Below are positions 54,317-59,460 of a stretch of DNA of 64,000 nt, in pieces. The notes beneath the pieces were generated by a model. It worked only from the letters and a program-made list of their open reading frames with translations, ran no database searches and had not been told where the DNA came from. The stretch comes from an uncultured Lachnospiraceae bacterium (GTDB lineage Bacteria > Bacillota > Clostridia > Lachnospirales > Lachnospiraceae): assembly GCA_947565425.1 (NCBI GenBank), contig CANOFW010000011.1, positions 15,484 through 79,483 on the forward strand, written 5' to 3'. Both the position numbers and the translations under genes were made by a program. Within the stretch, counting starts at the first letter, position 1; each line of letters starts with the position of its first letter.

Positions 54317-54390
54317 AAGCAATGTTTAATTTAGTAGCATGGTAACACGTTAAAGTGCTGATTCTAATTTTTAGAAAGGAAATTTACCAA

Positions 54391-55575
54391 ATGAAACGCA
54401 AGCTATTACATACCCCGGAGGGGGTTCGGGATATTTACAATATGGAATGTGCAAGGAAATTGATTTTGCAGCAAAACTTGCAAGATTTGCTAAAAATGTA
54501 CGGGTATCAGGCCATTGAGACGCCGACATTTGAATTTTTCGACATTTTTAGTCGGGAAATCGGCACGACCCCATCGAAGGATTTATATAAATTTTTTGAC
54601 AGAGAGGGGAATACACTGGTGCTGCGCCCGGATATGACGCCATCCATTGCCCGATGTGTGGCAAAGTATTATGCGGAAGAAGAATTTCCGGTACGCCTTT
54701 GTTATATGGGAAATACTTTTATCAATAATAACAGTTACCAGGGCAGATTGAAGGAGAGTACGCAATTGGGCGCCGAGTTGGTGGGTGACAATTCGGTGGC
54801 GGCAGACGCTGAGATTCTCGCACTAGTTGTCGATTCGCTAAAAACGGCCGGTCTTTTGGAATTTCAAATCGGCGTAGGACATACAGATTTCTTCCGCGGA
54901 TTGGTGCAGGCGGCAGAGCTGAAAGAAGAAGAGGAGCAGGAATTAATCGCGTTGATTTCTAATAAGAATTTCTTTGGCGTGGAGGAACTTGTAGATTCGC
55001 TTCATCTGTCATCGGAGCTGAAAGAATTATTTTCTATGCTGGGGAACCTTTGCATGAGCGATGATATGATGTGCAAGGCAAAGAAACTTTCCGCAAGGTA
55101 TCCGGTTATCTTGCAAGCGCTGGAACGCTTAGAATCTTTAATGCAAGTTCTTTCCTGCTATCATGTCGAAAAATATGTGTCGATAGAACTTGGTATGCTC
55201 AGCAGCTACCATTATTATACGGGTATTATTTTTGCAGGCTACACGTTTGGCAGCGGCGAGCCTATTGTAAAAGGCGGTCGTTATGATAATCTGATGGATT
55301 ATTTTGGTAAGCATGCACCTTCTATTGGTTTTGCTGTTGTGACAGATCAGCTTCTCGCTGCTTTGGCACGGCAGAAAATTGACATAGCGGTTGAGAACAA
55401 TCAGACATTGGTTGTATACCATAAAGAGCATCAGCAGGAAGCAATTGAACGTGCCGTTTCACTGCGGGAACAAAATCTTGGAGCTGCGCTTGTGTGCTGG
55501 GAGGATGAAAAAACAGAGGCGGATTACCGCGCGTATGCGCAGCGTATGCATATGCAGTCGATTATGTTTATCTGA
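54391..55575 (+). CDS. hisZ: ATP phosphoribosyltransferase regulatory subunit
   Basis: [34 protein letters not shown]; precedes a short-form hisG. Confidence 0.93.
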
Positions 55576-55589
55576 GAACGGAGGAAAAA

Positions 55590-56225
55590 ATGAGATATTT
55601 GACATTTGCATTGGGGAAGGGACGGTTGGCGAAACAGACACTTTCTACCTTTGAAAAAATAGGCATTACCTGCCATGAAATGAAAGACAAGGATACCCGT
55701 AAATTAATCTTTGTCAATGAAGAGCTGAAATTGAAATTTTTCCTTGCCAAAGGACCGGATGTGCCCACTTATGTGGAGTATGGGGCGGCAGATATCGGCG
55801 TAGTCGGTAAAGATACTATCTTAGAGGAAGCGCGTAACATTTATGAGGTATTAGATTTAGGGTTTGGCAAATGTAGGATGTGTGTCTGCGGACCGAAAGA
55901 AGCCGGGGAATTACTACAGCACCATGAATTAATCCGCGTTGCTACCAAATACCCAAGGATTGCTAAGGATTATTTCTATAACAAGAAGCATCAGACGGTA
56001 GAGATTATCAAACTCAACGGTTCGATAGAGCTTGCGCCGATCGTCGGCTTATCAGAAGTAATTGTTGATATCGTAGAAACTGGCTCCACTTTGCGCGAAA
56101 ATGGGCTCGGTGTTTTGGAAGAAGTCTGCCCCCTGTCGGCAAGGATGGTGGTGAACCAAGTCAGCATGAAGATGGAAAACGAACGCATTACAAAGTTAAT
56201 CCGGGAGCTGAAGGAAGTTCTTTAG
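55590..56225 (+). CDS. hisG: ATP phosphoribosyltransferase, short form
   Basis: [47 protein letters not shown]. Confidence 0.96.
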
Positions 56226-56249: not shown

Positions 56250-57542
56250 ATGAGAATTTTAAAATTGACGGAGGATACCAGAAAAAATCTTCTGGAAGAC
56301 CTTTTAAAACGAAGTCCCAACAGCTATAAGCAATATGAAGACAGTGTAAATGAAATAATCGAAAACGTGCGTCAGAATGGAGATAGCGCCGTCTTTTCTT
56401 ACACGAAACAGTTTGACGGCGCTGATACTCACGAGGGGAATATCCGCGTAACGCGAGATGAAATCGACCGGGCCTATGCGCTCGTGGATGACAAGCTCAT
56501 CGAGGTCATGAAGAAATCGTTAGAAAACATACGCATTTACCATGAGAAACAGAAGCAGTACAGTTGGTTTGACAGCAGACCGGATGGTGTCTTATTGGGA
56601 CAGAAGGTGACGCCGCTTGCGCGCGTGGGCGTATATGTGCCGGGAGGGAAGGCCGCCTACCCATCTTCTGTATTGATGAATGTACTGCCGGCGAAAGTAG
56701 CAGGCGTAGGAAAGATTGTCATGACGACCCCCTGTAATCGGGAAGGACAAGTAAACCCTGCCACCTTAGTGGCAGCGGACCTTGCGGGTGTTGATGAAGT
56801 TTATAAAGTCGGCGGCGCCCAGGCAATTGCAGCGCTTGCATTCGGCACAAAGAGTATTCCTAAGGTGGACAAAATTGTCGGTCCCGGAAATATCTATGTG
56901 GCCTTGGCAAAGAAAGCCGTATTCGGACATGTGAGCATCGACTCTATTGCCGGGCCAAGTGAAATTCTCGTACTTGCCGATGAAAGTGCAAACCCGCGAT
57001 ATGCGGCGGCAGATTTGCTATCTCAGGCAGAGCATGATGAACTGGCTAGCGCAATTTTAATTACGACGAGTGAAACGTTCGCCGCGCAGGTTTCCGCAGA
57101 AATCGACAATTTTACCGCCACGCTTTCCCGCAAAGATATTATAGAGAAATCATTGGAAAATTACGGCTATATCCTGGTGGCTGAGAATATGGAGGATGCT
57201 ATACACGCTGTCAACGAGATTGCCTCCGAGCATCTTGAGATATTAACGGTAAATCCTTTTGAGACGATGATGAAGATTCAAAATGCCGGCGCTATCTTTT
57301 TGGGAGAATATGCCAGTGAGCCTTTGGGCGACTATTTTGCTGGTCCCAACCATGTACTCCCAACGAATGGGACGGCAAAGTTTTTCTCCCCGCTGAGCGT
57401 CGATGATTTCATCAAAAAATCTAGCATTATTTCTTATTCTAAAGAGGCACTGGAACCAATTTACAAGGATATTGTGCAATTTGCAGAGTCAGAACGGTTG
57501 ACGGCTCATGCAAATTCAATTAAAGTAAGGTTTGAGGATTAG
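56250..57542 (+). CDS. hisD: Histidinol dehydrogenase
   Basis: YVPGGKAAYPSSV, GGAQAIAALA, AGPSE, SQAEHD, ASEHLE, GPNHVLPT. Confidence 0.96.
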   Translation: MRILKLTEDTRKNLLEDLLKRSPNSYKQYEDSVNEIIENVRQNGDSAVFSYTKQFDGADTHEGNIRVTRDEIDRAYALVDDKLIEVMKKSLENIRIYHEKQKQYSWFDSRPDGVLLGQKVTPLARVGVYVPGGKAAYPSSVLMNVLPAKVAGVGKIVMTTPCNREGQVNPATLVAADLAGVDEVYKVGGAQAIAALAFGTKSIPKVDKIVGPGNIYVALAKKAVFGHVSIDSIAGPSEILVLADESANPRYAAADLLSQAEHDELASAILITTSETFAAQVSAEIDNFTATLSRKDIIEKSLENYGYILVAENMEDAIHAVNEIASEHLEILTVNPFETMMKIQNAGAIFLGEYASEPLGDYFAGPNHVLPTNGTAKFFSPLSVDDFIKKSSIISYSKEALEPIYKDIVQFAESERLTAHANSIKVRFED

Positions 57543-57553
57543 GAGGGATTACC

Positions 57554-58147
57554 ATGTCAAATGAAAGAATCAACAAGCAGCGACGTAAGACGAAGGAGAC
57601 AGAAATCAATCTTACACTCAATATAGATGGCAGGGGCGAAACACAGATTGATACGGGAATAGGTTTCTTTGATCACATGCTGGACGGTTTTGCACGCCAT
57701 GGGCTCTTCGATTTGAAAGTTCAGGTAAAGGGCGACTTAATTGTTGATACCCACCATTCCATCGAAGACACCGGGATTGTGCTGGGAAAAGCGATTCGCT
57801 ACGCACTGAAAGATAAAAAAGGCATGAAACGTTATGGAAGCTGCATCCTGCCGATGGACGAGACATTGGTATTGTGTGCCATTGATTTAAGCGGCAGGCC
57901 GTATTTTTCATTCGAGGGAGAGTTTACGACAGAGAGAGTGGGGTATATGGAGACAGAGATGGTCCGCGAATTTTTCTATGCCATCTCTTACAACGCAGGG
58001 ATGAATTTACATATGAAAATCCTGTCGGGAACCAATAACCATCACATGATTGAGGGACTTTTTAAAGCGTTTGGGCGCGCCCTGGATGAAGCTACCATGA
58101 AAGACCCTCGAATCAGTGACGTTATGTCAACGAAAGGCAGCTTATAG
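57554..58147 (+). CDS. hisB: Imidazoleglycerol-phosphate dehydratase
   Basis: [29 protein letters not shown]. Confidence 0.96.
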
Positions 58148-58155
58148 GTGACATT

Positions 58156-59460
58156 ATGGAACACAAAAACTTAATCGCCACAATTTACTTAAAAGATGGT
58201 AACGCCGTAAAAGGTCGAGCTGACTTTACGGTTGTCGGCGACTGGAAAGAATTGTCAAAATTATATAACGAGAGCGGGGTCGATAAACTCTATGTATTTG
58301 ACTTATCGCAGAATGACAGAGAGCATGATATCCATCTGGGTATCATTCGCCATCTGAGCCGTCACATTGAGATTCCTGTTTATGGAGCAGGAAATATCAA
58401 GAAAATGGAAGATATCAAAAAGATTCTCTATGCCGGCTGCAAGGGAGCGATACTGGACGGTTCCAGGCATGATATCATTGAGATGGTTCAGGAAGCTGGG
58501 CAACGTTTTGGCAAAGAAAAGCTCCTGGTCTCTATGGAGACGGTGGACTTAATTTTTAAACATAAAAAAGAAGCGGAAGAACACATTCATAAGTTAGTAG
58601 TACTGAATGAAACGATTGTAGACGCATTAACGAACATTACAAATCTTCCATTCAGCGTTATTGTCTCCGGTTACGATAAAAAGCAATGGACAGATATATT
58701 AAAACGTGATGCGGTGACAGGCATTGGCGGCAATTATGTCAGCAGCCCAGGCACGGATATCATGAGCTTAAAACGAAATCTGTCTGCTGAGGGCATACAG
58801 ACAAGCAAATTTGTCTCCGCGATTCCCTGGTCGGAGTTTAAATTAAATGAAGATGGCTTGATTCCGGTGGTGGTGCAGGAATACCAGACTTGTGAGGTAT
58901 TGATGCTTGCTTATATGAACGAGGAAGCGTACAACATGACGCTTGCCATAGGTAAAATGACTTACTACAGCAGAAGCCGACAGGAACTTTGGATTAAGGG
59001 CGAAACTTCTGGACATTACCAGTATGTAAAATCTCTAACCATAGACTGTGACAAAGACACAATCCTTGCCACCGTCTCGCAGGTGGGCGCCGCCTGCCAT
59101 ACCGGTAATCCTACCTGTTTCTTTCAGGATTTGGTGAAAAAAGAATATATTAGTCGCAATCCACTGAAAGTATTTGAAAATATGTATGATACCATCACCG
59201 AGCGCAGAGAGCATCCCAAGGAAGGTTCTTATACAAATTATCTTTTCGATAAAGGGTTAGACAAGATTTTGCAAAATATCGGCGAAGAGGCGACGGAGAT
59301 TGTCATTGCCGCCAAGAATACGGAACCGGAGGAAATCACTTATGAAATATGTGATTTTATCTATGATTTGGTTGTGATGATGGTGGAAACCGGAATTACC
59401 TGGGACGAGGTTGTAGAAGAGCTGAACCAACGCTATTTCTATAGTGGCAACCGCAAATAG
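58156..59460 (+). CDS. hisIE: Fusion of a degenerate HisF/HisA-like barrel, HisI cyclohydrolase and HisE pyrophosphatase
   Basis: HisI motifs [38 protein letters not shown]; HisE motifs [14 protein letters not shown]; N-terminal ~220 aa resemble HisF. Confidence 0.85.

Follow-up and report, generated by a model that had tools for sequence, protein, structure and literature searches.

The sole HisIE protein of a Lachnospiraceae bacterium carries a HisF-like pseudoenzyme barrel that is probably retained as a non-catalytic module

We analyzed a 64,000-nucleotide stretch of DNA from a Lachnospiraceae bacterium, hereafter the window, in which a hisZ-G-D-B operon is closed by a gene for a HisIE protein with an additional N-terminal domain. 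The upstream genes are tightly packed on one strand. The first, hisZ, encodes the regulatory subunit of ATP phosphoribosyltransferase (54355-55575, +; TIGR00443, 310.7 bits with a cut-off of 271.65) and is followed by a short-form hisG (55590-56225, +; TIGR00070, 201.6 bits), hisD (56250-57542, +; TIGR00069, 560 bits), and hisB, which encodes imidazoleglycerol-phosphate dehydratase (57554-58147, +; NF002111, 275.8 bits). The last gene (58156-59460, +) is an uninterrupted ORF for a 434-aa protein, in which a HisF-like domain is followed by HisI and then by HisE. This architecture had been proposed from the letters of the DNA alone (the sequence-only reading); all motifs quoted there were found in the translation, and all three domains were matched by Pfam and NCBIfam models.

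The HisF-like barrel occupies residues 1-215 (58156-58800, +), and its description below draws on an AlphaFold2 (AF2) model, Foldseek, residue mapping, family frequencies, and dN/dS. A short junction (residues 216-232) and HisI, the phosphoribosyl-AMP cyclohydrolase domain, together span 58801-59145 (+; PF01502, 117.8 bits, and motifs). HisE, the phosphoribosyl-ATP pyrophosphatase domain (residues 331-426), forms the last part of the protein and is followed by a tail of eight residues and the stop codon (59146-59460, +; PF01503, 73.7 bits; TIGR03188, 95.2 bits). Pfam placed PRA-CH at residues 250-323 and PRA-PH at 342-426 of the 434-aa protein, and its His_biosynth match was confined to residues 6-131, which correspond to positions 2-132 of the 228 in the profile and hence to its first half only (55.7 bits). 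In NCBIfam, the bifunctional HisIE model NF002747 passed its cut-off of 187 with 255.1 bits over residues 227-426, whereas the HisF model TIGR00735 failed its cut-off of 294.55 with 51.7 bits, restricted to the N-terminal half. The best NCBIfam match of the N-terminal half was WbuZ, with 69.3 bits far under the cut-off of 299.7.

The HisI metal motifs, previously read as intact, were all found (SRSR, GETSGH, DCDKD, and ACHTG), and the acidic motifs of HisE, GEEATE and YEICD, are present as well. HisE carries four charge-changing substitutions at otherwise conserved positions (KK to QN at residues 373-374, K to T at 395, and H to D at 404; window positions 59146-59433). The KK-to-QN and YH-to-YD oddities had been pointed out before and are real, being fixed and conserved within a subclade of eight congeneric species. 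Like the canonical HisIE of Acinetobacter baumannii (PMC10242683), the window protein matches the HisIE equivalog (residues 222-426) with metal and acidic motifs intact; it differs in the extra 215-residue N-terminal domain and in the lineage-specific charge changes of HisE. The suggestion that the gene might be a second hisIE copy did not hold, since the whole assembly (92.9% complete) contains one PRA-CH and one PRA-PH match, both in this ORF. Because the motifs are kept, the copy is the only one, and the pathway is otherwise complete, the window protein should catalyze the HisE and HisI reactions, converting PR-ATP to ProFAR. [quoted passage not shown]

The sequence-only reading also noted that hisH, hisA, hisF, and hisC are missing from the operon. 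This is correct, but the genome holds all four elsewhere. A true HisF (382.9 bits) adjoins HisH on contig C1, and a eukaryote-type (HIS6) HisA (TIGR02129, 335 bits) is encoded on contig C26 (L002:1489-2271). HisC (285 bits) is also encoded elsewhere in the genome, as is a histidinol-phosphatase of the PHP type (173 bits). With all of these present, the possibility that the barrel supplies a missing pathway step was ruled out: the remaining steps are accounted for and PRA-CH and PRA-PH occur once, so the barrel fills no gap and the fused protein is the sole HisIE. A split layout of the his genes is normal for this group, and a comparative study of Roseburia describes this layout too but is silent on the additional domain (PMC7478625). 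The eukaryote-type hisA occurs in 100 of the 141 genomes that were sampled from the window's family, the others keeping the bacterial type. It is present in 81 of 99 genomes with the fusion and in 13 of 19 without it, by which a role of the barrel as partner of the eukaryote-type HisA was also ruled out. Beside the eukaryote-type hisA of the window's genome lies a 435-aa ORF (L002:2294-3601) with no NCBIfam match.

The fold of the N-terminal domain was predicted with AF2 for residues 1-227, with 44 family members in the input alignment. The resulting model (pLDDT 94.8, pTM 0.90) is a complete and compact (βα)8 barrel made up of eight β-α units. The second half of the barrel had been described as diverged, and indeed the β6 loop and the β7 Gly-Gly are gone, but the domain is not a half barrel, as all eight strands are formed in the model. 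The top 50 Foldseek matches in the PDB were all HisF or HisF-derived designs (TM 0.80-0.85, 16-19% identity). A search of the ESM Atlas returned fragments of the same family and nothing else.

We then compared the barrel with HisF of T. maritima, in which we take Asp11 and Asp130 to be catalytic, D98 to dock HisH, and R5, E46, K99, and E167 to form the ammonia gate. In the sequence alignment, the two catalytic positions are occupied by Y11 and E128, respectively, which bears out the earlier remark that the catalytic Asp is replaced. The HisH-docking D98 corresponds to K96, and at the ammonia gate R5, E46, and K99 correspond to N5, K44, and G97. The first phosphate site, formed at β3/β4, is partly retained: GGG (80-82) aligns with AGN (78-80), in which G79 is present in 100% of the family representatives compared below and G82 is replaced by N, and N103 aligns with D101 in the window protein and with N or D across the family. 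The second phosphate site, formed in HisF at β6/β7/β8, is lost, together with the β6 loop and its DxDG motif and the β7 Gly-Gly. Thus, the barrel departs from HisF in every catalytic feature while keeping its fold. It resembles HisF (T. maritima 1THF/1GPW and HisF-LUCA 4EVZ) in the (βα)8 architecture, in a colinear N-terminal half, and in its position in the operon; it is unlike HisF in the lost catalytic, docking, gate, and phosphate-binding features, in being about 35 residues shorter, in its fusion to HisIE, and in having no adjacent hisH.

The same architecture recurs in thousands of proteins of 426-434 aa that, where named, are called 'HisIE' from Lachnospiraceae. HisI was found in 131 of the 141 genomes sampled from this family. 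Its open frame measures at least 400 aa in about 99 of them and is of intermediate length in 13, and about 20 have an ordinary short HisI or HisIE. The fusion is therefore the majority form in the family; in the window's genus it was found in 28 of 31 genomes. A separate true HisF is encoded in 95 of the 99 genomes with the fusion. No true HisF in a long frame was detected within the family, where all true HisF frames measure 253-373 aa, and a search among these for intermediates in which a catalytic HisF is fused to HisIE was accordingly empty. Elsewhere in the class, HisI frames span 112-290 aa with three exceptions, which are genuine HisF::HisI fusions from three other families of Clostridia (L026:1148-2356, L027:1355-2551, and L028:1041-2156). 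Their HisF part scores 368-372 bits and the gene order is hisH-hisA-hisF::hisI. They share with the window protein the domain order and the operon position downstream of hisA; in contrast, their HisF part is the working cyclase of the genome, with hisH-hisA directly upstream, whereas the window's genome relies for this step on a separate hisH-hisF pair, the HisF part of its fusion being dead.

To gauge selection on the barrel, Nei-Gojobori dN/dS was calculated for seven congeneric pairs of the window's genus, most other pairs being saturated at synonymous sites. The estimates were 0.036 for the barrel, 0.011 for HisI, and 0.010 for HisE; they come from a handful of close pairs, most with dS of about 1 and hence near saturation. 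The barrel thus evolves faster than the enzyme domains, at 2-4 times the rate of HisI, yet it is clearly constrained. It is homologous to an enzyme, has lost the catalytic residues, and is under purifying selection (0.036 among congeners, 0.017-0.069 in the pairs of orphan genes described below). We are therefore highly confident that the barrel is a pseudoenzyme domain under strong purifying selection and not a decaying relic. The sequence-only reading had arrived at a HisF-derived pseudoenzyme, and the lost cyclase residues, the lack of a HisH partner in the operon, and the selection that maintains the domain all agree with it. A functionless relic of the fusion in neutral decay would explain the faster evolution and the lost catalytic residues; the dN/dS of 0.02-0.07, the frame kept open across most of the family, the confident prediction of a full barrel, and its retention after loss of the pathway all speak against it. 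This explanation is already contradicted by the selection data, and we give it next to no credence.

Gene order provides a possible route by which the barrel became attached to HisIE. In genome G006 the order is hisZ-G-D-C-B-H-A-F-IE, with hisF immediately upstream of hisIE; in G010 and G017 it is hisZ-G-D-B-hisA-[barrel::hisIE], with a bacterial-type hisA; and in the window it is hisZ-G-D-B-[barrel::hisIE]. In this series the barrel therefore occupies the slot of hisF. In an unrooted tree, the barrels, HisF, and HisA fall into three separate clades, that of the barrels with support of 100/99, which supports a single origin of the barrels. Such a tree shows no sister relation and cannot tell HisF from HisA or a WbuZ-like paralog as the parent; descent from HisF rests for this reason on the HMM scores, the fold, and the operon position. 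WbuZ slightly outscores HisF on the N-terminal half (69 vs. 52 bits), and it is known with AglZ-HisF2 from glycan amidation; unlike in those systems, no WbuY/HisH-like partner and no glycan genes lie near the barrel. The true HisF of the genome also matches WbuZ strongly (283 bits), and we thus consider the WbuZ match to reflect general likeness to HisF. It is likely that the barrel derives from the hisF gene that stood directly upstream of hisIE when the operon had the ancestral order hisZ-G-D-(C)-B-H-A-F-IE. Once the two were fused, the cyclase activity would have been supplied by the separate hisH-hisF pair. In G010, the longest hisB frame (L050:6358-7290, +) encodes 310 aa with the IGPD domain at residues 147-290 only; either the protein has 146 additional N-terminal residues, or the start was called too far upstream.

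Conservation of individual positions was assessed in 69 representatives of clusters at 50% identity. Position 11 is aromatic (Y, F, or W) in 53 of the 69 and Asp in none, position 128 and the equivalent of D98 are unconserved, and G79 is invariant. On the β1-β4 face, conservation specific to this family was observed at D49 (89%), S51 (94%), D54 (78%), E56 (64%), H57 (86%), N80 (67%), and the N/D position 101. The conserved residues present in the window protein are D43, D49, S51, D54, E56, H57, G79, N80, D86, and G94. A candidate patch, whose geometry is inferred from HisF numbering, would comprise the aromatic residue at 11, D49, S51, D54, E56, H57, G79-N80, and N/D101.

Such a pattern could arise in a barrel that binds nothing and is kept as a structural scaffold for the folding, solubility, or oligomerization of HisI-HisE. 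Most conserved positions of the N-terminal half (D43, D49, G79, D86, G94, and G119) belong to the HisF framework, and fold maintenance alone may account for their conservation; the catalytic face varies in its C-terminal half. In the model of the full-length protein (pLDDT 89.4, pTM 0.73), the short junction of the barrel with HisI is confidently placed (pLDDT 82-92), which suggests a fixed arrangement of these two domains, and the linker between HisI and HisE is less confident. The family-specific conservation on the catalytic face (the aromatic residue at 11, S51, D54, H57, and N80) is not obviously needed by a scaffold, however, and a further objection comes from relatives in which HisI itself decays. 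We regard a pure scaffold as an explanation to be taken seriously, albeit an unlikely one.

These relatives retain the fusion gene without the histidine pathway. In G096 and G157, both 99% complete and the former assembled as a single contig, the fusion is present but HisG, HisD, IGPD, HisA, and HisF were found nowhere in the genome. The gene is intact in both (427-428 codons) and occupies the same chromosomal position, downstream of recU. We refer to these genes as orphans; they include L052:7699-8982 (-) and L053:7364-8650 (-), as well as those at L057, L061, L062, L069, L071, and L072. In G096 and G157, respectively, the HisI motif SRSR reads DPNK and NRDK, DCDKD reads ECNKE and DCDKS, and CHTG reads CQSG and CRAA, while the barrel patch and most of the acidic motifs of HisE remain. 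The two orphans are 62% identical in the barrel, 49% in HisI, and 72% in HisE; for the pathway-positive pair G010 and G017 the respective values are 27%, 71%, and 72%.

The association between pathway loss and decay of HisI was followed within the genus of G157, where the gene is kept in 23 of 26 species, and HisD is present in 14 species and absent from 12. The HisI motifs are intact in 10 of 10 sequenced loci from HisD-positive species and degraded in 7 of 7 loci from HisD-negative species, differently in each case; in one HisD-negative lineage, two in-frame deletions have removed the zinc ligands of HisI. Five of the HisD-negative genomes are also without HisG and true HisF. In a tree built from the barrel and HisE columns only, a pathway-positive species is nested in a supported clade with two orphan groups, and the pathway was therefore lost independently at least twice.

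In close pairs of orphans, purifying selection on each of the three domains is strong. For L054/L055 the ω values are 0.067 in the barrel, 0.031 in HisI, and 0.016 in HisE; for L071/L072 they are 0.039, 0.037, and 0.032; and for L061/L062 they are 0.017 in the barrel and 0.026 in HisI, with HisE not estimable. The balance between the domains is shifted with respect to pathway genomes: the rate of HisI relative to the barrel is 1.48 in orphans vs. 0.54 in pathway genomes, and that of HisE is 0.76 vs. 0.29. The barrel is thus the relatively best-conserved part of the orphans while HisI decays, which would be odd for a domain that merely supports HisI. In G096 and G395, which both lack HisG, a true HisZ (288 bits) has stayed next to the orphan (L052:9003-10250, -, and G395:C25:34539-35468); no HisZ accompanies the orphan of G157, G382, or G398. 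To our knowledge, HisG is the only partner of HisZ. The retained HisZ could reflect a single deletion from hisG to hisB followed by slow loss, or a partnership with the orphan.

Taken as a whole, the findings point, with moderate confidence, to a sole HisIE that carries a HisF-derived barrel unable to perform the HisF reaction or to dock HisH, and that is selected as a non-catalytic module. As barrel and HisE are conserved in pathway-less relatives whose HisI is dead, the role of the barrel is probably not specific to intermediates found only in histidine synthesis, and the dead barrel probably has a second job beyond that pathway. The orphans come from other genera, and we infer the same for the window protein by extension. 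As a tentative model, for which the odds are somewhat under even, the barrel may use its β1-β4-face patch to bind a singly phosphorylated ligand or another domain, in conjunction with the HisE-type pyrophosphatase.

The sequence-only reading had suggested a barrel that may sense or channel a pathway intermediate (PRFAR, AICAR, or ProFAR) and so add a regulatory layer to histidine synthesis. With PRFAR or ProFAR as the ligand, the barrel could regulate HisIE or couple it to HisA and HisF. Descent from a PRFAR-binding enzyme, the partly kept β3/β4 phosphate-site positions (G79 and the N/D at 101), and the formation of ProFAR by HisI of the same polypeptide are in line with this proposal. With the second phosphate site lost, however, a bis-phosphate ligand could not be held as in HisF; the barrel is selected in genomes without HisG, HisA, HisF, HisB, and HisD, where such intermediates cannot exist; and the fusion shows no link to the type of hisA (see the counts above). 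We therefore consider sensing of PRFAR or ProFAR improbable.

An enzyme with a new activity, such as a metal-dependent hydrolase, might instead be built on the acidic/His cluster D49, S51, D54, E56, and H57, which lies at the C-terminal ends of β2 and in the β2-α2 loop, and persistence of the gene without the pathway would fit such an enzyme. Its positions are never invariant, though (E56 is found in 64% and D54 in 78% of the representatives), HisF/HisA are the sole family models and solved structures that the domain matches, and the genome misses no pathway step, so that a new activity seems quite improbable to us.

Returning to the non-catalytic module, a more specific version can be outlined. 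HisF barrels recognize the AICAR moiety, and AICAR (ZMP) is also made by purine synthesis, which makes it a possible ligand of the barrel. On these grounds, the pseudo-HisF barrel and HisE might form a histidine-independent unit that binds or hydrolyzes a phosphoribosyl nucleotide, with ZMP/ZTP as one candidate; in prototrophs such as the window's genome the protein would then moonlight, acting as HisIE and in this second function, which alone would remain in auxotrophs. We offer this as a conjecture that is more likely wrong than right by a good distance.

A parallel lies in the same operon. HisZ is a catalytically inactive paralog of HisRS that regulates HisG, and like the barrel it is a pseudoenzyme derived from a histidine-related enzyme that acts beside an enzyme of the histidine pathway as a non-catalytic partner. 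In contrast to the barrel, which is covalently fused and would have the role proposed here, HisZ forms a subunit of its own, whose allosteric function has been demonstrated. The barrel thus represents a second pseudoenzyme in one operon. Histidine biosynthesis is a textbook pathway; nevertheless, in a dominant family of gut bacteria HisIE carries a dead HisF barrel more often than not, and databases label the protein simply 'HisIE'. We found neither the dead barrel nor the orphan genes described in the literature that we searched. Fusions of hisF, hisI, and hisE have been mentioned in passing, without analysis (PMC9413887), and a review of histidine gene fusions lists five, among which neither hisF-hisIE nor the HisF::HisI type of the three other Clostridia families appears (PMC1963479).

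The orphans can be regarded as natural knock-outs of the pathway, in which the barrel is selected for something besides histidine synthesis, and they make this hidden function directly testable. They also bear on annotation. On the NCBIfam HisIE model they score 225-231 bits, above the equivalog cut-off, and are thus expected to be mis-annotated as working enzymes. Since they pass the cut-off with a broken HisI and no pathway, this step will be miscounted when metabolism is reconstructed, or auxotrophy predicted, automatically for gut microbes. Degraded HisI was likewise found in several metagenomic representatives (P0125, P0127, P0135, and P0158).
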